Below are positions 2,475 to 62,951 of a stretch of 64,000 nucleotides of DNA, piece after piece. Source of the stretch: Alphaproteobacteria bacterium (GTDB lineage Bacteria; Pseudomonadota; Alphaproteobacteria; GCA-2731375). The stretch covers positions 335,816 through 399,815 of the forward strand of contig CBDEHK010000001.1 of NCBI GenBank assembly GCA_965238305.1, read 5' to 3'. The notes beneath the pieces are model-generated. The model had not been told where the DNA came from, did not search any database, and saw only the letters and a program-made list of their open reading frames with translations. Made by a program: the position numbers and the translations under genes. How positions within the stretch are numbered: position 1 is the first letter of the stretch; every line of letters starts with the position of its first letter.

Positions 2475-4388
2475 CTAATCTATAGGTGAAGCAGCTTCCT
2501 CGGCTATTGTCACCAAGGCTGCGTCCAGTGCAAGTACTTCTTGCGATTTACTTCCGAGCCGGCGCAGGGACAACGTGCCTTCTGCGGCCTCGCGTTTGCC
2601 GATCGCAGCAATTATGGGCACCTTTTTCAAAGAATGCTCACGAACTTTGTAATTGATCTTCTCATTCCTCAGATCAAGTTCGATCCGCAAACCTTGGGCG
2701 CGCATTTTTTCGGCAACTACTTGGGCGTAATCGTCGCTTTCTTGCGTAATTGTGGCCAACACGACCTGCACAGGGGCCAGCCAGAGCGGAAAACGACCGG
2801 CATAATGCTCGATTAGGACACCGATAAAACGCTCAAAAGAACCCAAAATGGCCCGGTGCAACATCACCGGGCGGTGTTTTTGCCCGTCTTCGCCGACATA
2901 ATTCGCGTCCAGCCGGTCCGGCAGCACCAAATCGACCTGCAGGGTGCCGCATTGCCAATCACGGCCAATAGCGTCGCGCAAGACAAAATCCAACTTCGGA
3001 CCATAGAACGCGCCGTCGCCCGGATTCAATTCATAGGGTAGGCCAGTGGCGTTAATGGCTTCGGTCAGCGCGCTCTCCATTTTATCCCAAAGTTCGTCAC
3101 TACCGGCACGCACCGGCGGGCGAGTTGATAGCTTGATGACCACGTCGTCGAAGCCGAGATCGCGATAGATGTCGAAAAGCAGGTTGCAAAATCGGTCGCA
3201 TTCAGAATTAATTTGAGCTTCCGTGCAAAAAATATGAGCATCGTCTTGAACAAATCCGCGCACGCGCATTAGACCATGTAACGCGCCCGAAGGCTCGTAA
3301 CGGTGACACGCTCCGAATTCCGCCATCCGCATCGGCAAGTCGCGATAGCTTTTCAGCCCTTGGTTAAATATCTGCACATGACAGGGACAGTTCATCGGCT
3401 TTAGCGCCCACATGCGCTCTTCCGACTCCGTAATATACATATGCTCTTGGTATTTTTCCCAGTGGCCGGATTCTTCCCACAGCCGGCGGTCCACCAACTG
3501 CGGGGTTTTTACTTCGCTATAGCCATTGGCATCCAATTTCGCCCGCATGTAATCCTGCAGTGCTGTATATAGTGTCCAGCCCTTTGGGTGCCAGAACGGG
3601 AAACCGGCGGCTTCTTCCTGAAAATGAAAAAGCTCCATTTCTCGGCCGAGGCGACGGTGATCGCGCTTTTCAGCTTCTTCCAAACGAAACAGGTAGGCTT
3701 TCAGCTCTTTATCATTACGCCAACAGGTGCCGTAAATGCGTTGCAGTTGCTCATTGTTAGAATCGCCGCGCCAATAGGCCCCGGCAATTTTCATCAGCTT
3801 GAAGGCTTTGCCCAACTTGCCTGTCGACGACAGATGCGGCCCGCGGCAAAGGTCCGTGAAAGTGCCTTGGGTATAAACCGAGATTTCTTCCGTCTCCGGC
3901 AGATCGGCAATGATCTCGGCTTTGTAATGTTCGCCGATGGATTTGAAATAATCGACGGCTTTGTCGCGCGACCAAACTTCGCGGACGATCTCTTCGTCGC
4001 GGTCGACGATTTCCGCCATCTTCGCTTCAAGTAACACCAGATCTTCCGGTACAAAGGGTTCGGCGCGGGAGAAGTCGTAGTAAAATCCATCTTCAATGGC
4101 TGGACCAATCGTGACCTGAATATCGGGCCAGAGTTCCTTCGCTGCCTCCGCCAAAACATGGGCGCAGTCGTGGCGAAGCAATTCCAAAGCGTCGTCATCA
4201 GTTCGCGTGACGATGGCCAAATCGGTATCTTGCGTTAAGGGCAAAGATAAATCGATTAATTCGCCATCGACCTTCGCGGCTAGCGCGGCCTTGGCGAGAC
4301 CTGGACCAATGTCTCCGGCAATTTCGCCGGCATTGATCACCCCATCGTATTCACGGACGCTGCCGTCCGGTAGCTTGATGTTGACCAT
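2475..4388 (-). CDS. thrS: Threonine--tRNA ligase
   Basis: 637-aa ORF with a TGS-like N-terminus, an editing-domain HxxxH region ([10 protein letters not shown]) and a class II core ([23 protein letters not shown]). It lies directly upstream of infC, as in many bacteria. Confidence 0.95.
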
Positions 4389-52587: not shown

Positions 52588-52664
<77 letters not shown>

Positions 52665-52752
52665 ATGATTTCAGGGGGTTAGCCAAAATTTCGATTTAAA
52701 CAGTTTTATCTAGGGCACCTATAGGGCACCCGGGGGGCGATTAATCGCAATC

Positions 52753-54849
52753 TCAAGACATATCCAGATCAGCAAAAAATTCCGACGCTGGTTTGATGCC
52801 TGTAACTAAAAGACGATCTCTTGCGCGGGTACAGGCGACGTAGAAGAGATGGCGTTCGGTTTCGTAAACCACGTCTAATTCTGTTTCGTCGGCGACGGTT
52901 TCGATACGTCGTTGCAAGGGCAAGATATCATCATCGCATTCAATGACCGCCACGGCTTTGAATTCCAGCCCTTTGGCTAAATGCATGGTGCCGATAGAGA
53001 CACGGCCTTCTCGTTCTTCTACCCGATCGGAAAGTTCCAGCGTCTTTTGACCGGCTTGCTTCACAACTTTACGCGCCCGCAGCAGTTCATCATTGCTGCG
53101 TACAAAGATGCCAATCTCGTCCGGTCCGATCCCATCGTCGATGGCCTGGCGCAGCCACCTTTCGACGCCCGCAGTTTCCTCGGCTAAGTCAGGAAAAATT
53201 TGCACTTCTGGTTCTGGCCCGTTGAAAATCGAAACCGTGCCTGAGCGATCTTCTTCGTTGCCATCGACATCGCGTACAACGGGGGGCAACAGACCATCTA
53301 CGGCTTGGCGGATTTGGTGCGACGTCCGGTAGTTGACCTTCAGCGTGTGCGATCGCCCACGAATATCGACGCCTAATGCCTTCCAGGAAAAGGGTTCCTG
53401 AAAAATGCGTTGCCCCAGATCGCCAGCGAAGAACAGGGCGCCTGGCTTTGGATCGGCGATGGCCGCGAGCATACGTAACTCAGACACGCCTAAATCCTGG
53501 GCTTCATCGACAATGATGTGGGTAAACGGTTTGTCTTGTCGTTCGGCAAAATGCGCTGTTACCTTGGCAAATACACTCGGCCAGGTGTCGAGGAGGTGAG
53601 CGCCCAATATTTGGCGCGCCTTTGCGAAGACAGGCCAGACGCGTTCACGCTGCTTCGATCCCAGTCGGTTCTTGCGACCTAGACGGCGAACATCGCGGTA
53701 GGCTTCCAGATCATTAAGTTGCCAGGCATCTACAACGTTGTTCCATTCTGAGATCAGGAAGCGATCGGTAAAACCTGTCAGCTTGAGTTCTTCGGCAGCG
53801 CCTTCAAGGGCCGCCTTTACATGTTTAGGTGTCGCCAGGTGGGGATGACGGGCAAAAGCCAGGGTAAATAAATCATCGGCGACGCCTTGGAATGGCAGGA
53901 TGGTCGCCTGACCGCCCGTTCCGTCCTTTCCGGTTAATAGTTCAAGTTTATGCTCAAGCGCGTTGGCAAGCGGCGACGAAAACGTCGTCAGCAACACTTT
54001 CGCCCGCTTGTCTTTGTTCATGATCGCGGCTGCCCGGTGTAACGCCACAACGGTCTTGCCGGTGCCGGCGGAACCGGATACGCGGGCCGGACCGCCAAAA
54101 GCTTGATCGACAATCCGGCGTTGGGATGGATGCAGAAAAATCGTCCATTGTTCCCATGGATAATCGAGCGCCCTTTGCAATTCTTCGACGTCGTCCAGTA
54201 CCCGGAAGCGACGCTGGGCATCGGGATGCTCGAAAGGATCAATATCGACCGGCGCAGTTTCAGCCAACCGCAGGACGCCGGTTGCGGCATAATCCAGCAA
54301 CGCTTCCGCCGCTTCTGCCGGCATATGGTCAGCGAGTTCGAAGAAGTTTTCTTCGGACGCTTGCAAAATATCGCCAATCCAATCTTCCGGCACCCCGATG
54401 TCCAGCAACTGATCGGCCGATAGATCCTGGAATAGCGGCGGCAGGTACTTTTCCTGCGGCACATCGCTGGCCGGAACGGGTTCAGGCGCGACATAAACCG
54501 GCAGGGTTATTTCCTCGACCCGCTCCCGCACTTCGACAATTTGCGCGGCGCCGGTCTTCGGGTGGGCCTCGATCCGCCGCCGTTCCGCCCATTTATAAGC
54601 GTCATCATGATGGTCGGCGTAACAAACCAGAAAGCTTTTCGCCGTTTTGTGGACGATGACGCGGATATCGCGGTTAACCCGGATCGACCAGAAGTTCGGG
54701 TCCTTCGATTTGTCAATGCGATGGAATTGCAACCCCGGCGACGACGGATCCTGCTGCATGTCGAAGACAGTGATCTTGACCGCCGATTGCTCTTGTGCCG
54801 TCAACCGCGCTAGGGCTTTGGAGAAACTATCAGCAAGGCGGAAAAGCAT
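52753..54849 (-). CDS. RelE/ParE-like N-terminal domain fused to a UvrD/Rep-like SF1 DNA helicase; last gene of the island operon
   Basis: SF1 motifs: GSAGTGKT, IIVDEAQDL, FFAGDLGQRIF, LKVNYRTSHQI, TMHLAKGLEFKAV and FYVACTRARDRLLV. Residues 1-95 read ...FHRIDKSKDPNFWSIRVNRDIRVIVHKTAKSFLVCYADHHDDAYKWAERR. Confidence 0.85.
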   Translation of the reverse strand: MLFRLADSFSKALARLTAQEQSAVKITVFDMQQDPSSPGLQFHRIDKSKDPNFWSIRVNRDIRVIVHKTAKSFLVCYADHHDDAYKWAERRRIEAHPKTGAAQIVEVRERVEEITLPVYVAPEPVPASDVPQEKYLPPLFQDLSADQLLDIGVPEDWIGDILQASEENFFELADHMPAEAAEALLDYAATGVLRLAETAPVDIDPFEHPDAQRRFRVLDDVEELQRALDYPWEQWTIFLHPSQRRIVDQAFGGPARVSGSAGTGKTVVALHRAAAIMNKDKRAKVLLTTFSSPLANALEHKLELLTGKDGTGGQATILPFQGVADDLFTLAFARHPHLATPKHVKAALEGAAEELKLTGFTDRFLISEWNNVVDAWQLNDLEAYRDVRRLGRKNRLGSKQRERVWPVFAKARQILGAHLLDTWPSVFAKVTAHFAERQDKPFTHIIVDEAQDLGVSELRMLAAIADPKPGALFFAGDLGQRIFQEPFSWKALGVDIRGRSHTLKVNYRTSHQIRQAVDGLLPPVVRDVDGNEEDRSGTVSIFNGPEPEVQIFPDLAEETAGVERWLRQAIDDGIGPDEIGIFVRSNDELLRARKVVKQAGQKTLELSDRVEEREGRVSIGTMHLAKGLEFKAVAVIECDDDILPLQRRIETVADETELDVVYETERHLFYVACTRARDRLLVTGIKPASEFFADLDMS

Positions 54850-56024
54850 TAGTGGGATTTTTCGTTTTTGTCGTTTGAATTGCGTTTCAAGGCTGTAGTC
54901 AATTTCTCAAGGAGAGAATTGACCATCGCATCTTCGTCGCGATTTTGGGCAAGTTCGATCGTTTTTTCATCCTTGCGCATAATGATATTTCGTTCTGATT
55001 GAAGCAGTTCTTTAGATAACTCACTCACCTGTTTGAGCGTCCCATGCTCAATTGCCAAAAGCGCACCGGCCTGGCGAAGGCTTAAAGTAGTTGCTTCGTT
55101 GGAAAAGTAGCGCATCATCTCCAAAGCCTTGGACTGATAGCGGAACATTATCAATGCCAGAACTTCTGCCAAAATTATGAAAGGAAGAGTGAAGGGGAGG
55201 TGACGAAACATGAACAATACTGAACTGCGCCCGCCTGGTTCGTTAGCGGAAACGGCATTCGTAAGGTCTCGTACGGTGCCAGACAACGTCGCATCTTCGC
55301 TGAAGTATAATATCAAGCTGTATGCGGCTATTGCAATCCCAGACAAAGAGAGCGCTAGTCCGATGAGGCGAAATAGAACAGCGGTGCGTTGTGCGGCAAG
55401 TGTCTGATCTAGAATACGGATTCGGTTAAGGTTGAATAAATCCGAAATACTTTGAATTAATCTTATTCGATCGGCATGATCTTTCGCCTGCTTTGCAACA
55501 CGCTCGCCTAGCGCAGCAACGATATCGCTGCCAAGCTCTTCATCCAATTTCACCTCAATTATTGCGTCTGCATTCGCCGTCAATTCACTAATATCAAGAT
55601 TGTTCGTTTTCTTCTCTAAGGAATCAATACGAGAAACAAGATCCCGGCGAAGACTTTCTATTGCAGATGACTGCTCTCGTTCTGCACTTGCAAGTTCAGA
55701 AAAATCTGCAGCACCTCTCCGAAGAATAAACTGACGAACAAACCTGAAAAAAATAACTGAAATTGTAAAAACTCCAATGGCCATCAATCCGAGAAAAGTT
55801 AGAAGAAGAAATGTGTCTGTGAATATAGTGCTGTCGCTCTTTCTATTTTTGTCCTTCTCCAGAATCGAGCCAACTTCTGAGAAGAAACTTTCGAGTTCGT
55901 TGCCGATTGAGAAGACCACCGCCACAATAGCAATTGCGATAGCGGCGGCGATTAACACATATTCAATAGCTGTGTTTCCTTTTATGTCCGAAAGGAAATT
56001 GCTACGTTGATTAATTCGTTCCAT
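54849..56024 (-). CDS. Four-TM coiled-coil membrane protein with an Flp-pilin-like N-terminus; function unknown
   Basis: 391-aa ORF, AT-rich, with an N-terminal KGNTAIEYVLIAAAIAIAIVAVV segment. Three further hydrophobic helices are separated by charged heptad-like segments. A TAATG overlap links it to the downstream helicase gene. Confidence 0.7.
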   Translation of the reverse strand: MERINQRSNFLSDIKGNTAIEYVLIAAAIAIAIVAVVFSIGNELESFFSEVGSILEKDKNRKSDSTIFTDTFLLLTFLGLMAIGVFTISVIFFRFVRQFILRRGAADFSELASAEREQSSAIESLRRDLVSRIDSLEKKTNNLDISELTANADAIIEVKLDEELGSDIVAALGERVAKQAKDHADRIRLIQSISDLFNLNRIRILDQTLAAQRTAVLFRLIGLALSLSGIAIAAYSLILYFSEDATLSGTVRDLTNAVSANEPGGRSSVLFMFRHLPFTLPFIILAEVLALIMFRYQSKALEMMRYFSNEATTLSLRQAGALLAIEHGTLKQVSELSKELLQSERNIIMRKDEKTIELAQNRDEDAMVNSLLEKLTTALKRNSNDKNEKSH

Positions 56025-56027
56025 ATT

Positions 56028-59015
56028 CTATACCCCAAAAACTTTCATCACTTCGTCACCGAAGTGGTTGATGACTTTGACGGCGAAGCGGCCGGTGGAG
56101 GGGCGGGCGAAGGGGATGCTTTTGTCGCGGTAGAGGGTTTGCCAGGCTTCCTCATCGATCTCCGCCTTCAGCGTAGTCTTCAGTGATTTGTACGGGTCCT
56201 GGGCGCCCATGAAATAGGCATGGCGGACGAAAAAACTTTCTTCGTCATAATCGCTGTCGATGAACCAGGCGGCGATGTCGTCCTTGCCGCTGGCGCGCAC
56301 CTCGCCGGTCTTGGGATCGAAGACGTCGACGCCCAGAACTTCGACGGTGATCATGCCGTCGTCACCGAAGGCCCATTCGATGTCCGGTTCGCCAAAAACG
56401 ACGAACAAATTGCCGGCTCCGGTATTTTTTAACTCGTCCGACATATGTAGGTCCGGGTTCATCTTCGCCTTTAGGATCGGCAATGGACCAAGCTTGCTCA
56501 GCTCCGACGTATGGGCATCGAAGTTGAAGCCGCAGGCGATCAAGGTATCGAAGCGGGCATCCAAGGCTTCGCGCGCCGCCGCCGTCAAATCGGCGCGGGT
56601 GATCGAGCCGAATTCAGGGCCGATGAAGATGGCGCCCCGGCGTTCGGTCTCGCCCTCCATATAGCGGCCTTCGGCGGCGATATAGTTGCCGGGCCAACCG
56701 TCGATGGTGGTGAAGCTTACGCGATCTTCCTTGGCGGCTTGATGGACCCCGGCGGATTTCAAATTGTCCAAGACCATCGTTGTGAAATCGTTCAGCGGCG
56801 CCGGCGTGTCGCGTTTTTCCTTCCGGCCTTCGGCGGCATCGACCAATTCGATCAGTTCTTCGTTATCCGATGTCTGCATGCGGTGCGGCGACAGGCTTTC
56901 GACCGTGAAAGGCCCGGCGACGCGGACCTTGGCCTTGTCCTCGTAAGGCCGATCATAGAGATATTCGACGTCTGCTTTTTTCGCGATGGAGGCGTCGATT
57001 TCCCGCTGCCGGGCGATCCGCTGTTGCCACCAGTCGCCGTGTGCCTTCAATACTGCAGCGGACCAACCTTCGCCGGCTTCGCGGGGAATTTCCCATTCCT
57101 CCCAGGCTTCGCCCAGGGCATCTTTCAGCGCCACCCGCAACGATTCCAGTTTTTCCTGATAACTTTCCAAGATCACATCGATTTCGGCGTTGTTGGCGAT
57201 GACGCCGGATGTAATGTACCTAGACCTTTTATAAACAAAGCCTTGGCGGATATCGCCCTGGGTCGAAGTATCCGGCTGAATGACGCCGGAAAGCTCCTGT
57301 TCCTTTGTTTGGCCTTCGGCGCTGTCGGCAAGCAGATAATAGGGATAACGCGCGCCCATCAAGCGCGCCCGCGCCAGGGCCAGCGAGACCCGAGAGGTAT
57401 CGACGGTGATCCAGCGCCGCCCCCACTGCTCCGCTACAAACGCAGTCGTGCCTGAGCCGCAAGTAGGATCGAGCACGATGTCCCCTGGGTCCGTGGCCAT
57501 GAGAATACAGCGTTGCACCAGGCGCTCATTTGTTTGAACAATATATACTTGGCTGGAAGCCCCCCCAAATCCATCCCACCAATTCGAGATGCTCTTAAAA
57601 GGAAAATCCTCCAAATATCTCCTATAATCTAGGCTTGTCTTTGATGGGATTAACCGCCCAGCAAGTTTTACTCGTTCCATCCCAGTAAGGCCGACCATCG
57701 TATCCTTGGACGTATGGCTCCAACAACGCCCCTTTGGCGGATCAAAAGACTTACCTGACAAAACAATCGGGGCCATTTGGTTTTCACGGAATCCACCGTT
57801 GGTGATTGGCCATGGTCTGAATAGTCTAGCGTTCGGGTAATCTTCCTGAATTCGCTTTGGGTAAAGGCGGTAATCTATGTATTCGCCATCAATATCTTCA
57901 TTGGACTTGAGGTTAATAGTTTTTCCATCAGGCAATTCCAGTCTAGAAAACTCGTCGATCGTTTCATTATCAAGAAGTCTGTCAACGAATAGACTTCTGT
58001 ATTTAGTTACGCCCCTTGCGCGTTCTGATTTCCCGTACCACAAAATGAAATCATTAACGGGATCTATCATTGAGCTTTTTTGTGATCCTTTTTTCTTGAC
58101 AAGAATTTCAGTGATAAAACTCCCCTCCCCAAACACCTCATCCATCAGCGCGCGGACCCGGTGGACGTTTTCGTCGCCGATTTGCACGAAGATGGAGCCG
58201 CTGTCCGTGAGCATGTCGCGCATTACGGTCAGACGGTCGCGGAGATAGGTGAGATAGGAATGGATGCCGTCTTTCCAGGTATCGCGGAAGGCTTTGACCT
58301 GTTCCGGTTCGCGGGTGATCTGATCCAGCTTGCCGTCCTTCACGTCGCGGCTGCGGGTCGAAACCTGCCAATTGGAATTGAACTTAATGCCATAAGGTGG
58401 ATCGAAATAGATGCATTGCACTTTGCCGCGTAGTTGTTCCCGCTCAGCCAGGCTGGCCATGACCTGCAGACTGTCGCCCAGGATCATGCGGTTTTGCCAA
58501 TTGCGGTCGTGCTGATAAAACTCGGTCGCCGCTTCCGGATCGATGCCGTTGAAATCGCCGAACAAGTCCGGCATTGCCGCTTCCTGTTCCCGCCGTTCGT
58601 CGGTTTGGCGTTTCAAATCGTCAATGATTGCCTTGGGGTGAATTTTTTCCTGGATATAAAGCGGCGGTGCCTGCACCACCAGGTCAGACCAGTCTTGTTC
58701 ATCCTTGCCGCGCCAAACCAATTGCGCATCGCCGATTTCTAGCTTGCCGGTTTCCTTTAATTCTTCGATCTGCGCCGGATTCAGACGCAGGGTCGCGCCC
58801 TTCCAGATGATTTGCGGGTCCAGATCGCCTTCGCGCGGCCGTGTTGCCCCTTCCATCAACGGATCTTCGCGGGCATAAGTCACCGGCTCCACCGGCGCCA
58901 TCTCCTCCGCCCGCTGCGCCACCGTCTGCAACTCCGCCGTTGGAATATTCTTCCGCCGCGCCTTCTCATGCTTCAGCGTCTCGACTTGCTTAGCTTTTTT
59001 TGGCTTACGCGCCAT
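56028..59015 (-). CDS. Large beta-class DNA amino-methyltransferase (N6-A or N4-C), Type III Mod-like
   Basis: 995-aa ORF. Motif IV (IYFDPPYG) precedes motif I (VLDPTCGSGTTAFVAEQWGRRWITVD), which is the beta permutation. An AT-rich central segment between the two motifs is the presumptive target-recognition domain. Confidence 0.88.
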   Translation of the reverse strand: MARKPKKAKQVETLKHEKARRKNIPTAELQTVAQRAEEMAPVEPVTYAREDPLMEGATRPREGDLDPQIIWKGATLRLNPAQIEELKETGKLEIGDAQLVWRGKDEQDWSDLVVQAPPLYIQEKIHPKAIIDDLKRQTDERREQEAAMPDLFGDFNGIDPEAATEFYQHDRNWQNRMILGDSLQVMASLAEREQLRGKVQCIYFDPPYGIKFNSNWQVSTRSRDVKDGKLDQITREPEQVKAFRDTWKDGIHSYLTYLRDRLTVMRDMLTDSGSIFVQIGDENVHRVRALMDEVFGEGSFITEILVKKKGSQKSSMIDPVNDFILWYGKSERARGVTKYRSLFVDRLLDNETIDEFSRLELPDGKTINLKSNEDIDGEYIDYRLYPKRIQEDYPNARLFRPWPITNGGFRENQMAPIVLSGKSFDPPKGRCWSHTSKDTMVGLTGMERVKLAGRLIPSKTSLDYRRYLEDFPFKSISNWWDGFGGASSQVYIVQTNERLVQRCILMATDPGDIVLDPTCGSGTTAFVAEQWGRRWITVDTSRVSLALARARLMGARYPYYLLADSAEGQTKEQELSGVIQPDTSTQGDIRQGFVYKRSRYITSGVIANNAEIDVILESYQEKLESLRVALKDALGEAWEEWEIPREAGEGWSAAVLKAHGDWWQQRIARQREIDASIAKKADVEYLYDRPYEDKAKVRVAGPFTVESLSPHRMQTSDNEELIELVDAAEGRKEKRDTPAPLNDFTTMVLDNLKSAGVHQAAKEDRVSFTTIDGWPGNYIAAEGRYMEGETERRGAIFIGPEFGSITRADLTAAAREALDARFDTLIACGFNFDAHTSELSKLGPLPILKAKMNPDLHMSDELKNTGAGNLFVVFGEPDIEWAFGDDGMITVEVLGVDVFDPKTGEVRASGKDDIAAWFIDSDYDEESFFVRHAYFMGAQDPYKSLKTTLKAEIDEEAWQTLYRDKSIPFARPSTGRFAVKVINHFGDEVMKVFGV

Positions 59016-59931
59016 CTACTTGCCCCGTAGTTACAAACATCGGCTTTTGGTGCGGACCCGGCGAGTGGCCAAGAACTTCCACTATTTCATAACTGTCATT
59101 AACCCATGCGCCGATCATTTCATCTTTTTTTTGATGGATGCGGAGCATAACTCGCAATGTATCACCAGTTCCAATGACGTATTCATGGCTAGCTAATTTG
59201 TCGTAAAACATGTCATCTAGGATCGGCGCTGATATCTTTATCCCGTCACGCCAGACAAACTGCCATTTACGTGGCCCGCGTTCAAAGATTGCGCGGATAA
59301 TCAGAAGTTCGGTTTTTTCATATTTGTTGCGACGATTTTCTTGAGAAATGACGATATCACGTACTTCGGAAAGGCGAGGGAATTGAGCGCGCGGAACATT
59401 TACGAGAAGTTGCTCATCCTTAATGTCCTTAGCAATTCCAAAATTCTGTACGTCTTGGTCTTTTTGCAATATTTCGAACGCATTCGAGACCCTTTGTTCA
59501 AGCTCAAGATTTTTAGAGATTTTCTCTTTCTGCTCGCCAACTTCTTTTGGAAGAATAACCCTTTGGTTGCCAGATTCTACGACGTAATGATCGTCGTTCA
59601 CGTAGATGTTAATGTCGGGATCGTCTGCGATAAATTTCTCATAAATAAAGGCCGTAAGTAATCCAAGTACGATCGTCAACGCAGCCGTGCGAATGAGTGG
59701 AGTCGCTCGTTTCGATAATGTCCTTATACGTGCCCTAAAAGAGCCTTCGCCCAAAGCATCAATGTAAATCTCAATCTCAAAATCAGGATTAATCGCCCTA
59801 CTTATTTCCTTTATTGCCGAACTGACTTCGAGCAAGGTATTGGCAAATGTTTCTGCGTTAATTCGGCCGAACTCACCACCAAAGTGAATTACAAATTCGT
59901 CGCCTAGACTTGTAAGGTCAACGGTTTGCAT
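59005..59931 (-). CDS. Orphan 308-aa protein with one predicted TM helix, inserted between res and mod
   Basis: AT-rich ORF. Its start overlaps the res stop (TGATG), and its stop lies 8 nt inside mod. It has one hydrophobic helix (LIRTAALTIVLGLLTAFIY). I recognise no family motif. Confidence 0.65.
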   Translation of the reverse strand: MQTVDLTSLGDEFVIHFGGEFGRINAETFANTLLEVSSAIKEISRAINPDFEIEIYIDALGEGSFRARIRTLSKRATPLIRTAALTIVLGLLTAFIYEKFIADDPDINIYVNDDHYVVESGNQRVILPKEVGEQKEKISKNLELEQRVSNAFEILQKDQDVQNFGIAKDIKDEQLLVNVPRAQFPRLSEVRDIVISQENRRNKYEKTELLIIRAIFERGPRKWQFVWRDGIKISAPILDDMFYDKLASHEYVIGTGDTLRVMLRIHQKKDEMIGAWVNDSYEIVEVLGHSPGPHQKPMFVTTGQVDGA

Positions 59932-62900
59932 CAGCTACCACCCTTCTGCGCGGCTTTCTCGATCAACGCCTTAAACCGCTCATCCATCTTGAACACCTCA
60001 CCGAATTCTTCGAAAGACCAGCGGCCGTAGGTGCCAAGATTATTGACGCCGGGGATCCACTGGGTCTTCATTGTTTCGGATTTCAGTTTGACGTTTTCGT
60101 TGCGGTAACCTTTCACTTCGACGATCAAGTGCAGCGGATCGTCCGCGCCATGGCCGTCGTCGATTTGGACGATGAAGTCGGGGATATAGTGTCGGGCGGT
60201 TGAGCCGTCCTTGTATGGCACTTCCAGGCCCAGGCCCTGGTTCTTCACATAGGAAATGACCTGCGAATGCTGTTCCGCGACACGAGCGAATTCACCTTCC
60301 CAGTCGCTGTCTTCCACGACGAAGTTGATGTGGCATTTATCGGCTGCGGTCTTCCAAAGGTCTTTGGTGGTACGAAAGCCGACATGGGCGGTGGAGCCAT
60401 TGGGGTTATAGGGATCTAATACGGCTTTGATCTTTTGCTGATCGCCGATGGAGCGGATGATGGCGTGATAGATGCGTTCAGAGGCTTGATTGGCGATGTT
60501 CAGATATTCCAACATCCAGGCGCCGGTATCGCCGGTGCAAACAAGATACCCACCTTCAATCCATTGTCGAGCAATACGGCGTAAAGGCCAAAACAGGTGC
60601 AACTTGGGCTCGCCATCCTGGTCAGTGTAATATTTGTACATCAAATGTTTGGCGAGATCGTAGGCGATGGTGCTGGGTCGTTTGCTTTGCGCTTCCGCTG
60701 CCGTGATTGTCATGCCTTCACCGACGATACCTTCCATCCGCGTTTGGCCGGGTCCGACCAATTCGGGCGTCAGCACGAATTTTGAATCCTCGGTGAATTC
60801 CGCCGTCAATTTTTCTTCCGGCATTTCGACGCGATAGCCGGTGACGCGCGGGAAGGTAATTTCCAATGCGGCGCGTTCCTTCACCGCCGCGACCCAGGTC
60901 GACGGCTTGGGTGGTTTCACAGGGGCGACTTGCGGTTTGGCGGTGAAATCAAACGGGATGCCTAGAATGTCGGCATATTCAACGTCGAACAGATCTTCGT
61001 CATTCAGATCATAAGAATAACGACGTAATCCGCGGCCGACCACCTGTTCGCAAAGCAATTGGGTGCCAAAGGCGCGAATACCAAGGATATGGGTAACGGT
61101 GTTGGTATCCCAACCTTCAGTCAACATGGATACGGAGACAACACAGCGCACTTGCTCGCCCAAGCGTCCGGTTTTGCCGACCGTGTTCATCACTTCACGC
61201 AACAGGTCGGCATCGGTTTCGTCCGCCAGTTCGCCCCGTTGTCGGCGTTCGCGGCGGAACTGTTCGATTTCGCCTGCCGCCATAGTTCGAAAGTTCTTAT
61301 CCAGCGCTTCGCCGGATTCCAATTGAAAGCTGTCGATTAGCAGCGTGTTCGGTCTGGCCAGCGGCTCGCCATATTCGTCGTAATTACGAAATAGTTCCAG
61401 ATGGCCGTGATGCTCAAAAACCATCTCACCATCTTCGTTCGACCGTTGCCAGCCGGAAATCCATTCATGGACCAATTTTGATGTCGAGGTATTGTTGCAG
61501 ACGACGATGAAGACTGGTGGTGTTTCAATCCCCGCACGCTGCCATTCCGCATCGGTTTCTTGATAGTGTTTATAGAGCGCATATAGCGCTGTTTTAAGCG
61601 TGTCGTGGATCAACAGGGGATCGCTAGTGGTTCGCCCCTTCTTCGGCATATACTTGCCGATATGTTCCCAAAGATCGCGGAAGATCGGCATGTCTGCGCC
61701 GGGGATATTGTCGGCAACCGGGACGCGCGGCAGCTTGACGATGCCGCATTCAATGGCGTCCATTAATGAGAAGTCGCAAACCGTCCAGGGGAACAAGGTG
61801 CCTTCGGCCCAGCCCGACCCGCTTAAGAAAAACGGTGTGGCAGAGAGATCGTAAACGGCACGGACGCCTAGCTTGCGCTTGAAGGCTTCTAGGCCGCTGA
61901 TCCAAACGCGCGCCGCCTTGTTGTCCGCTTCCGCTTCTTTTTTTTCGTCACCCCTTAGATCCGCAACATCATCCGTGCCTGTTTTCGCGCGGTAACAATG
62001 ATGGGCTTCATCATTGATCACCAAGATATTTTTCAGGCCCATTAGGGGATCGGCGACACGGCGGATCATCTGACCTTCGGTTTCCTGTGTCTTTGGCGCT
62101 TCACCACGGCCCTGCAGCAGCGAGCGGCCAATTTTATTGGTTGCCATCTGCTCGCGCAGCTGAAAGGCGTGGTAGTTGGTGATGACGATCTTGGCCTTAT
62201 GGACGTCCGGCAACATATCCGCAGGTACCAGTTCGCGTGACTGATAGTAACTGTCGACATCGTTGGGCTGCAGGACCCGCAAACGGTCTTTAATAGTAAT
62301 ACCCGGCGTGACGACCAGAAAACCACGCGTGAAAAGTCGGCTGGTGGGTGAGCGCACCGCATTCACGGTCTGCCAGGCGATCAACATCGCCATCACCGTG
62401 GTCTTGCCAGCACCGGTGGCCATTTTCATCGCCAGGCGGATCAGTTCCGGATTGGCTTGCTCATTGGCGCCATGGACATGATCCCAATACCCCTTGTGCG
62501 TCTTTTGCGTCCGCGCCACTTCGGTTAGCCAAATGATCGTCTCGACCGCTTCGATCTGGCAGAAGAAAGGGCGGATGCCCTGGAACTCGTGATGACGCCA
62601 ATGCTGCAGAAGTCGAGCGGTCGCCGGGGTGACACCCCAATCGGACTGGCTTGGCAGTCTTCGCCAATTGGCAACATGCGTGCGGATCTCATTAATGATC
62701 GGCGTTGGGTTGTATTCCTGCTCTTCCGATGAAATGCCATCATTGCCAGCCAAATCCATAGCCGCCTGCTTCGGGTCGGCTTTCTGGCGCCGTTTCCTGG
62801 GTTTTGGCACCGGCGTGATAAACTCCGATCGTCGGCGGCCAGCGTTGGGCGGATTGTCTGTCGGTTGCCCTTCATCGTCCAAGTCGTGATAGCGGCCTGG

Positions 62901-62951
62901 CTCCTCATAAGGGGAGTTGAGAATTGGCTGTTCGTAAAAGCTATGGGCCAT
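59931..62951 (-). CDS. Type III-like restriction enzyme Res subunit (SF2 helicase/translocase plus a C-terminal PD-(D/E)xK nuclease)
   Basis: 1006-aa ORF whose N-terminus (FYEQPILNSPYEEPGRYHDLDDEGQPT) is typical of this Res family. It has Walker A (MATGAGKTTV), DEAH (VINDEAHHC) and motif VI (QVVGRGLRR), plus a C-terminal YIPDF...LIVEVKGY nuclease motif. Confidence 0.88.
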   Translation of the reverse strand: MAHSFYEQPILNSPYEEPGRYHDLDDEGQPTDNPPNAGRRRSEFITPVPKPRKRRQKADPKQAAMDLAGNDGISSEEQEYNPTPIINEIRTHVANWRRLPSQSDWGVTPATARLLQHWRHHEFQGIRPFFCQIEAVETIIWLTEVARTQKTHKGYWDHVHGANEQANPELIRLAMKMATGAGKTTVMAMLIAWQTVNAVRSPTSRLFTRGFLVVTPGITIKDRLRVLQPNDVDSYYQSRELVPADMLPDVHKAKIVITNYHAFQLREQMATNKIGRSLLQGRGEAPKTQETEGQMIRRVADPLMGLKNILVINDEAHHCYRAKTGTDDVADLRGDEKKEAEADNKAARVWISGLEAFKRKLGVRAVYDLSATPFFLSGSGWAEGTLFPWTVCDFSLMDAIECGIVKLPRVPVADNIPGADMPIFRDLWEHIGKYMPKKGRTTSDPLLIHDTLKTALYALYKHYQETDAEWQRAGIETPPVFIVVCNNTSTSKLVHEWISGWQRSNEDGEMVFEHHGHLELFRNYDEYGEPLARPNTLLIDSFQLESGEALDKNFRTMAAGEIEQFRRERRQRGELADETDADLLREVMNTVGKTGRLGEQVRCVVSVSMLTEGWDTNTVTHILGIRAFGTQLLCEQVVGRGLRRYSYDLNDEDLFDVEYADILGIPFDFTAKPQVAPVKPPKPSTWVAAVKERAALEITFPRVTGYRVEMPEEKLTAEFTEDSKFVLTPELVGPGQTRMEGIVGEGMTITAAEAQSKRPSTIAYDLAKHLMYKYYTDQDGEPKLHLFWPLRRIARQWIEGGYLVCTGDTGAWMLEYLNIANQASERIYHAIIRSIGDQQKIKAVLDPYNPNGSTAHVGFRTTKDLWKTAADKCHINFVVEDSDWEGEFARVAEQHSQVISYVKNQGLGLEVPYKDGSTARHYIPDFIVQIDDGHGADDPLHLIVEVKGYRNENVKLKSETMKTQWIPGVNNLGTYGRWSFEEFGEVFKMDERFKALIEKAAQKGGS

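Follow-up and report, generated by a model that had tools for sequence, protein, structure and literature searches.

The window analysed here, a stretch of 64,000 nucleotides (nt) from an Alphaproteobacteria bacterium, carries on its minus strand the gene of a 698-amino-acid (aa) protein in which a RelE/ParE-fold domain precedes a UvrD-like helicase motor of superfamily 1 (SF1). The gene encodes a protein of the type of ArmD, a component of the ARMADA type II defence system, and this identity is secure. In a mobile restriction–modification (R-M) operon that is type III-like, it forms the fixed third member alongside the genes of a restriction endonuclease (Res) and a DNA methyltransferase (Mod). 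Homology and genomic context point to a role in phage defence that depends on the protein's ATPase. In the reading that we favour, which in its entirety, mechanism included, we consider moderately probable, it is a latent, self-controlled RelE-like ribonuclease (RNase) tethered to an SF1A motor and acting as the third component of the R-M system.

A first-pass annotation of the same DNA had proposed that the N-terminal part resembles RelE/ParE-type toxins and had quoted six helicase motifs from the C-terminal part. All six were present in the translation (GSAGTGKT at residues 259–266, DEAQD at 448–452, GDLGQRIF at 476–483, NYRTSHQI at 506–513, KGLEF at 626–630, and VACTRAR at 671–677), and the N-terminal string quoted there corresponds to residues 40–91. 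The start codon was confirmed by 37 homologues, read from their loci, that begin at the same first residue. The proposed toxin resemblance was in turn borne out by an AlphaFold2 model and by structural searches with VIA-align and Foldseek. At the sequence level, Pfam HigB-like_toxin (PF05015) matched residues 32–81 with an E value of 0.0089 and 16.9 bits, below its 27-bit cut-off. In individual Pfam scans of 28 members of the family, each represented by its N-terminal 235 residues (alignment A1), the same model was matched by 27 of the 28 at E ≤ 1 (best 9.4e-6) and ParE_like by 14. Because a profile search of PDB sequences gave no RelE chain, a comparison of folds was needed. The model of residues 1–235 had a mean predicted local distance difference test (pLDDT) score of 78.9, with 10-residue block means of 78–92 across residues 1–100. 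It places strands at residues 2–6, 42–44, 53–57, 62–68, and 72–80 and helices at 7–14 and 18–33, followed by a further helix (81–89) and a hairpin (91–106). The chain thus runs from a short strand through two helices into a sheet of four strands, to which the helix and hairpin are appended, and it agrees with the RelE/ParE fold, a compact unit of approximately 85–95 residues with two N-terminal helices against an antiparallel beta-sheet. In the VIA-align search of 48,161 representative chains, 22 of the first 24 ranks went to RelE/ParE-type toxins, the remaining two being the Cami1 RelE-like domain and a domain of an insecticidal toxin. The top match was YafQ (4q2u_B; Z 9.3, root-mean-square deviation 2.1, 85 of 90 residues aligned), and RelE of Methanocaldococcus jannaschii (Z 8.5), RelE of Thermus thermophilus (Z 8.2), and YoeB (Z 8.2) were among the six chains with Z ≥ 8, whereas unrelated rows had Z ≤ 4.2 from rank 26. 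A Z of 7–8 in this method may reflect a common arrangement of elements; the assignment is nonetheless sound because the toxin matches span nearly the whole target chains, form one family, and exceed the unrelated rows. Foldseek likewise matched the N-domain to YoeB (2a6r_C, E 7e-4) and RelE (3bpq_B, E 9.4e-4). As predicted by the model, residues 1–88 therefore form a genuine RelE/ParE fold that is closest to YafQ, RelE, and YoeB.

To compare the active-site residues, YoeB and YafQ of Escherichia coli K-12 were aligned directly with seven N-domains and the N-domain of ArmD using MAFFT (alignment A2), because a Pfam YoeB_toxin scan of 41 related genomes gave a match in 4, too few for a YoeB profile. 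A study of YoeB (PMC3814384) describes E46 as the general base, H83 as the general acid, R65 and Y84 as stabilizing the transition state, and R59 and E63 as contacting the mRNA. At identities of 12–23%, five of these six residues had a counterpart in the N-domain: R59, E63, R65, H83, and Y84 were aligned with R57, D61, R63, H81, and Y85, respectively. H87 and F91, functional residues of YafQ, also fell on H81 and Y85. Among 48 full-length relatives with identities of 35–76% (alignment A3), R63, H81, and Y85 were kept in all 48 and R57, D61, and H43 in 46 each; the two arginines, the histidine, and the tyrosine were also kept in ArmD. In the model, H81 and Y85 stand at the start of a helix that runs into a conserved hairpin, and this helix–hairpin extension contains the invariant residues W87, A88, T99, and Q103. 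Taken together, these alignments suggest that an RNase-type site is largely retained apart from the general base.

The full-length model (pLDDT 85.9, predicted template modelling score 0.77) divides the remainder of the protein into a linker, a helical middle domain, and the motor. In the middle domain, G152, P154, E179, D210, R213, F215, and W235 were invariant in the 48 relatives. The fold matches of residues 136–200, to the N-terminal part of polymerase X/lambda and to helix–hairpin–helix or SAM-like domains, were weak (Z 3.0–3.5), and nothing was drawn from them. The motor was recognized by Pfam as UvrD-helicase (residues 240–483, E 1.4e-14) and UvrD_C (607–683, E 1.9e-17), and every SF1 motif, including K265 of Walker A, was invariant in the 48 relatives, in keeping with an SF1A helicase that has Walker A, a DExx Walker B, and motifs III–VI on two RecA-like domains. 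Its best Foldseek match was UvrD of Deinococcus radiodurans (4c30_F, E 7.4e-22), followed by UvrD of E. coli, PcrA, and Rep down to 4e-19, and a family profile searched against PDB sequences reached UvrD (2.2e-33), PcrA (4.3e-31), HelD (3.2e-18), and GajB (1.7e-10). The top PADLOC matches of the motor were GajB models (E 3e-23). Docking of residues 1–110 on residues 136–698 was predicted with a score of 0.60 (0.52, 0.63, and 0.60 in separate runs), the best of three controls scoring 0.00; 96% or more of the contacts were common to the runs, and the partner pLDDT was 84 or higher. In the calibration of this method, 116 of 157 solved complexes passed, as did 2 of 215 mismatched pairs. Only 18 of the 157 solved complexes, but both passing mismatches, scored 0.60 or lower, counts that are rough, our own alignment having been used here. 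The prediction thus lends weak support to the idea that the RelE-like domain docks on the helicase body.

The closest characterized relative is ArmD. In a BLASTP comparison with ECs_5264 of E. coli Sakai, the ArmD sequence taken by accession from NC_002695, the protein was 31% identical (E 2e-100), with query residues 5–684 aligned to subject residues 10–693, and it can thus be aligned over its full length with the ArmD protein family. No match to the gene itself was found by blastn in 5,426 E. coli genomes. ArmD of ARMADA type II, from E. coli NCTC 12900, was described in a preprint that gives it the same architecture of a RelE-like N-domain and a helicase (Bell et al. 2025; PMC12458937). The evidence cited there for the RelE part is an HHpred match to 3BPQ_D (E 8.5e-3). 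According to the same text, deletion of armD or the Walker A substitution K266A abolishes ARMADA II defence, and D454N causes a partial loss (PMC12458937).

Full-length relatives are numerous: the search returned at least 8000 matches, and each of the 120 best had an identity of 71% or more and spanned 99% or more of the query. Some carry the automatic JGI name 'superfamily I DNA/RNA helicase/mRNA-degrading endonuclease RelE'. The N-terminal 235 residues matched 2667 clusters at 50% identity (E ≤ 0.001), and the matches listed (150 of the 2667) were mostly fragments or proteins of approximately 690–700 aa. Also among the matches listed were two giants, P0218 (1951 aa) and P0236 (2017 aa), in which the RelE-like/UvrD front is kept and is joined by another SF1 helicase, of Upf1/DNA2-like type (AAA_11/AAA_12), and by a nuclease of the PD-(D/E)xK class (PDDEXK_1).

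When one genome per species was considered, 176 stretches encoded a relative. The locus counts given here are drawn from the best 80 of these 176 stretches, that is, from the closest relatives, and describe the gene's own clade alone. These 80, with identities of 50–76%, came from Alpha-, Beta-, and Gammaproteobacteria, Planctomycetota, Nitrospinota, Verrucomicrobiota, Acidobacteriota, Dehalococcoidia, Desulfobacterales, and a cyanobacterium. Where the flank reached 4 kb or more, a Mod gene on the same strand preceded the helicase gene in 61 of 62 loci, and where it reached 9 kb or more, a Res gene did so in 49 of 52; the exceptions were two loci with very large inserts (L044 and L062) and a remnant disrupted by insertion sequences (L063). 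The position of the helicase gene at the end of an R-M operon, which the first-pass annotation had noticed in the window, thus recurred in 61 of the 62 relatives whose flank was long enough. Helicase identity tracked that of Mod (rho 0.89) and of Res (rho 0.87), the two partners tracking each other with rho 0.77, in 44 loci that are kin and therefore non-independent. The gene was also present on 14 IMG/VR contigs, with Mod upstream in 12; the other two had less than 900 nt of upstream flank. The gene is therefore a constant third component of a mobile type III-like Res–Mod–helicase operon.

These distributions bear directly on two rival explanations. If the protein were a UvrD/Rep paralogue with a common role in repair or replication that happens to be encoded beside an R-M system, then the fact that UvrD, PcrA, and Rep are the closest solved structures would be explained. 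However, the genome holds one copy of the gene, on an island that carries an integrase gene; a search of 61 related genomes recovered its N-terminal part from 4 and gave no match in the genome of the same genus that was covered (87% complete); and it is linked to Mod in nearly every locus across many phyla. Scores against the NCBIfam UvrD/Rep/PcrA equivalogs were also far below their cut-offs (e.g., 63.8 vs 911 bits for pcrA), and the homologue ArmD is required for defence. We regard this explanation as barely tenable, in agreement with the first-pass annotation, which had preferred a putative sensor/effector of nucleic acids to a repair helicase. The strict linkage to Res and Mod would also be expected of a guardian similar to PrrC, in which a latent RNase is held in check by Res–Mod, fires when a phage anti-restriction function disables the R-M system, and aborts the infection. 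PrrC of the EcoprrI locus offers a parallel, being likewise an RNase fused to an NTPase and encoded with an R-M system but without an antitoxin gene. Against such a guardian, strains lacking armA, armB, or armC singly were obtained and tested in two preprints, phage-free growth being reported as unchanged in enterohaemorrhagic E. coli (EHEC) (10.1101/2025.09.22.677730; PMC12458937), so that ArmD is not obviously toxic without its partners, and ARMADA II is reported to be non-abortive (PMC12458937). A guardian function is therefore unlikely.

A further rival invokes a classical toxin that stabilizes the island or the operon by post-segregational killing, the fusion to the helicase being incidental; the RelE-superfamily fold and the location on a mobile island would both fit. 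Such a module would need an antitoxin. No small open reading frame (ORF) was conserved within 700 nt downstream of the helicase gene in 68 loci, the largest cluster comprising 2 loci, and where the junction between mod and the helicase gene is empty, the gap is 6–19 nt. Because of these two observations, we conclude that there is no antitoxin gene, and the adjacent cognate antitoxin of a type II toxin–antitoxin module is thus absent upstream as well as downstream. Moreover, the fusion to a motor in which all motifs are invariant has been kept across phyla at identities of 50–76%. An addiction module is accordingly very improbable.

Conservation of the Arg/His/Tyr residues, together with the flexible nature of the tether, favours the latent, self-controlled RNase. 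In this mechanism, Res–Mod would distinguish unmethylated incoming DNA, and the helicase would load on the resulting DNA ends, nicks, or stalled complexes and then translocate, as the Walker A genetics of ArmD and the precedents of GajB and UvrD suggest. A flexible tether of approximately 25 residues joins the motor to the N-terminal RelE/YoeB-like domain in the predicted structure, and engagement of the motor may license this tethered domain to act as an RNase, its most likely targets being invader transcripts that are nascent or bound to ribosomes, a step to which the residue conservation points. In uninfected cells, the RNase would be kept inactive within the protein itself; intramolecular control is inferred because no antitoxin gene exists. 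A more elaborate version is a two-level attack, in which the third subunit tracks foreign-marked DNA while its self-inhibited RelE domain cuts mRNA in the ribosomes that trail RNA polymerase. We know of no R-M system with such a function, and we put the proposal forward as speculative and rather doubtful. If it were true, recognition of foreign DNA would lead to local, non-abortive silencing of invader expression, a DNA-guided use of a ribosome-dependent toxin fold.

Several observations weigh against an active RNase and have to be set beside the evidence for it. The YoeB general base E46 is aligned with G39, in a loop, although the alignment is unreliable there at identities of 12–23%. The equivalents of H81 and Y85 lie on a free C-terminal tail in YoeB (PMC3814384), whereas here they are embedded in a predicted helix–hairpin, and the geometry of the active site may differ accordingly. 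The N-terminal part alone scored 18.9 bits with HigB-like_toxin, below the curated threshold of 27 bits, the A1 profile retrieved only two chance-level rows and no RelE-family chain from PDB sequences, and the support from the docking prediction is weak. On the experimental side, the plasmid table of the ARMADA preprint lists the armD deletion, K266A, and D454N alone and includes no RelE-site mutant (PMC12458937). The same preprint reports that ARMADA II acts directly, non-abortively, and without metabolic shutdown, which fits poorly with a general translation toxin (PMC12458937). The second preprint, which examined the system in native EHEC, reports a smaller effect in the strain deleted for armD than in those mutated in the other arm genes (10.1101/2025.09.22.677730).

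The alternative that draws most on these points is that the protein is a helicase-only accessory, in which the RelE-like domain is a non-cutting adaptor for nucleic acids or partners, docking on Res or Mod or holding single strands, and the motor does the work by itself, either like GajB, by sensing DNA ends and consuming nucleotides, or like UvrD, by unwinding the cleaved DNA of the invader so that it can be degraded. The unmatched general-base position and the non-abortive character of ARMADA defence would then need no explanation, and the histidine and tyrosine within an invariant helix–hairpin could belong to a binding surface. GajB models are the best matches of the motor in the defence library, and the GajB literature describes a protein that senses DNA termini and hydrolyses (d)ATP/(d)GTP. 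On the side of the fold, the five retained YoeB counterparts, three of them invariant in the 48 relatives and kept in an ArmD that is 31% identical, are more than a mere adaptor needs. ParE-type members of the fold are not RNases, whereas the members that are RNases (YafQ, RelE, and YoeB) rank above ParE among the structural matches. We therefore treat the adaptor as a possible explanation, appreciably less probable than the tethered RNase.

The coordinates of the gene, its domains, and the surrounding features are given in Table 1.

Table 1. The RelE-like/UvrD-like helicase gene, its operon, and the island (window positions unless prefixed by L093 or G000:C1)
Feature	Position	Strand	Basis and remarks
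RelE-like/UvrD-like (ArmD-type) helicase gene	52753..54849	minus	ORF and translation; ATG start; 698 aa
RelE/ParE-fold domain, residues 1–88 (beta strand, two helices, beta-sheet)	54586..54849	minus	AlphaFold2 model, VIA-align, Foldseek, Pfam
Helix end and beta-hairpin extension of the RelE-like domain, residues 89–110	54520..54585	minus	Helix 81–89, strands 91–95 and 102–106; invariant columns
Variable low-confidence linker (tether), residues 111–135	54445..54519	minus	pLDDT < 50 at 111–132; indel-rich, length-variable alignment
Conserved helical middle domain and lead-in to motor, residues 136–235	54145..54444	minus	Helices at 145–190 in model
SF1A UvrD/PcrA/Rep-type motor, residues 236–698	52756..54144	minus	Pfam, Foldseek, profile; Walker A K265, DEAQD 448–452
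Cargo between Mod and helicase: 391-aa membrane protein, Flp/Fap-like N-terminus	54849..56024	minus	Pfam Flp_Fap E 2.7e-10; phrog_5157 E 1.1e-8; GC 0.444
Mod: 995-aa type III-like DNA methyltransferase	56028..59015	minus	PADLOC MTase_III PDLC03632 1139.5 bits, full length; Pfam N6_N4_Mtase E 2.3e-32
Cargo between Res and Mod: 308-aa LAPAL-family / PDC-S42	59005..59931	minus	NCBIfam LAPAL_fam E 1.4e-49; PADLOC PDC-S42 E 2.7e-16; GC 0.444
Res: 1006-aa superfamily 2 (SF2) helicase with C-terminal endonuclease	59931..62951	minus	NCBIfam BPTD_3080 family restriction endonuclease 1296.2 bits; Pfam ResIII, RE_endonuc 877–964
tRNA-Arg(CCG), island integration site	52588..52664	plus	ARAGORN
41-nt exact direct repeat bounding the island, left copy	52632..52672	plus	Right copy outside window, G000:C1:409248-409288 (L093:10749-10789)
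Tyrosine integrase on island	L093:9247-10554	minus	
Prim-Pol/DUF3987 primase on island	L093:5282-7690	minus	
Caspase-like gene and EACC1 gene, just past window end	L093:1718-3337 and 3349-3729	minus	

In the window, the operon consists of five tightly packed minus-strand genes, which are separated by a 3-nt gap or overlap by 1–11 nt, with the helicase gene last; the stop codon of the 391-aa membrane protein overlaps the helicase ATG by 1 nt. The two inserted cargo genes have a GC content of 44%, compared with 52–60% in the core genes. PADLOC REase_III models matched Res weakly (E 7.3e-8). A scan of the region for promoters and terminators gave fewer sites than in shuffled sequence and was uninformative. 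No description of a Res–Mod–helicase operon was found in the literature covered, which left out most subscription journals, and a literature search for BPTD_3080 gave no match.

Both junctions of the operon are slots for swapped-in defence genes. The junction between res and mod exceeded 250 nt in 26 of 56 loci and that between mod and the helicase gene in 47 of 70, the spacing at the latter being 250 nt or less in the other 23. Among 92 same-strand slot ORFs scanned, 36 had a Pfam family at E ≤ 1e-4 and 56 had none. The families included GmrSD (6), ABC-type AAA_15/AAA_21 ATPases (5), PIN (4), DUF488 (4) with DuOB (2), and PD-(D/E)xK (2), and among the singletons were GIY-YIG, NYN, PLD, an M78 peptidase with DUF4411, NOV_C/MTaX1, and SNF2. 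A three-gene cassette, encoding a DuOB protein and two DUF488 proteins, occupied the slot between mod and the helicase gene at two distant loci (L003:8213-9970 and L011:3326-5127). For the LAPAL protein encoded between res and mod in the window, the names conflict: NCBIfam calls it a 'putative phage structural protein', and PADLOC lists it as a defence candidate. The 391-aa Flp/Fap-like protein has further hydrophobic stretches, no PADLOC match, and a weak match to phrog_5157, and it is a candidate membrane effector. The locus L063 was considered as an alternative context of the gene and set aside, being an insertion-sequence-disrupted remnant with a 321-aa methylase fragment and transposases. 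Three transposase genes break the operon there (L063:1481-8227), while the helicase gene and two cargo genes (PIN and M78 peptidase) are intact.

The operon is the cargo of an integrative element, because repeats at the tRNA-Arg bound a stretch that carries integrase and primase genes. The tRNA-Arg(CCG) gene lies 88 nt past the helicase stop codon, and its 3' end recurs in the right copy of the repeat; the 25-nt core of the repeat was found once in L093, against 0 expected, and the 41-nt identity was read from the sequences. The stretch between the repeats is approximately 20.8 kb long. Its layout resembles that of a satellite-like mobile element with a restriction operon aboard. The same island encodes a 539-aa caspase-like (Peptidase_C14) protein beside a 126-aa EACC1 (effector-associated constant component) protein, and this pair is probably a second conflict system.

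RelE-type toxins are free-standing growth inhibitors, and in Cami1 a RelE-type domain is a CRISPR-controlled effector. In the present protein, the same fold has retained its central Arg/His/Tyr residues and is joined to a DNA motor; the fusion accompanies two or more unrelated restriction systems that rely on methylation, namely ARMADA II and the type III-like operon, and it spreads across many bacterial phyla on mobile islands. If the N-domain is an active RNase, self/non-self discrimination at the DNA level would be linked to RNA cleavage in one restriction complex; if it is not, a toxin fold would have been recruited as an adaptor. The operon junctions are, in addition, a source of candidate defence genes, as are those of Hma, BREX, and type I R-M systems, given the large share of slot ORFs that have no Pfam family.

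Among known systems, ArmD is the closest counterpart. Both proteins consist of a RelE-like N-domain, a helical middle part, and a UvrD/GajB-like motor, in which K265 corresponds to K266 of ArmD, and both are encoded by the terminal gene of a defence operon that combines a methylase with a helicase–nuclease. The partners differ: the ARMADA preprint gives a Snf2/BrxHII-like ArmA, a PglX-like ArmB, and a YprA/DUF1998 ArmC (PMC12458937), whereas a BPTD_3080-type Res and a type III-like Mod are encoded here, and Pfam and PADLOC gave no Snf2, PglX, or DUF1998 match for the operon genes. ArmD also differs at H43, D61, H67, and H80, which are near-invariant in the R-M-linked clade. The N-domain is similar to YoeB, YafQ, and RelE in its fold, with Z values of 8.2–9.3 over nearly the whole toxin chains, and in the five counterparts of YoeB residues. 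It is distinguished from these toxins by the lack of an antitoxin gene, a C-terminal body of 590 residues, the helix–hairpin after the His/Tyr pair, an unmatched general base, and a sub-threshold Pfam score. Cami1, a CARF–RelE protein of type III CRISPR systems, is another case of a RelE-like domain fused to a module for sensing or regulation in phage defence, and it was among the structural matches (8phb_A, Z 7.8, in VIA-align; 8phj_X in Foldseek). As the titles of its PDB entries indicate, it has been solved on the 70S ribosome. Its sensor, however, is a cyclic-oligoadenylate-binding domain and not a helicase, and apart from the shared fold the two are unrelated in sequence.

GajB of Gabija is comparable as a UvrD-like SF1 accessory of a defence nuclease and provided the top PADLOC models, but it is without a RelE-like domain, and UvrD and PcrA are closer to the motor by profile; PADLOC found no GajA (OLD nuclease) match among the operon proteins. 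PrrC of EcoprrI is similar in being an NTPase–RNase fusion encoded with an R-M system and having no antitoxin gene, and different in its fold, its reversed domain order, and its association with a type I system rather than the type III-like one found here. The operon shares with the type III R-M systems EcoP1I and EcoP15I an N6_N4-type Mod and a Res composed of an SF2 ATPase and a C-terminal endonuclease. The classical type III order is mod–res, whereas it is res–mod here; both proteins are approximately 1000 aa long, there are two cargo junctions, and an obligatory helicase gene adds a third member to what is otherwise a two-gene system. Hma is likewise a three-gene operon of helicase, methylase, and NTPase, whose junctions hold embedded ABC ATPases, GmrSD-like proteins, and RNases (Payne 2021, 2024; Liu 2024). 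Its families are DUF3883/Snf2-NOV_C in HmaA, DUF1156 in HmaB, and DUF499 in HmaC (PMC11232893), and an assignment of the present operon to Hma was ruled out, as Pfam and PADLOC gave no DUF3883, DUF1156, or DUF499 among the operon proteins. The fusion of a RelE-like domain to a helicase has thus already been described, in two preprints, and is echoed in the JGI names; what is new here is the different system that it serves.

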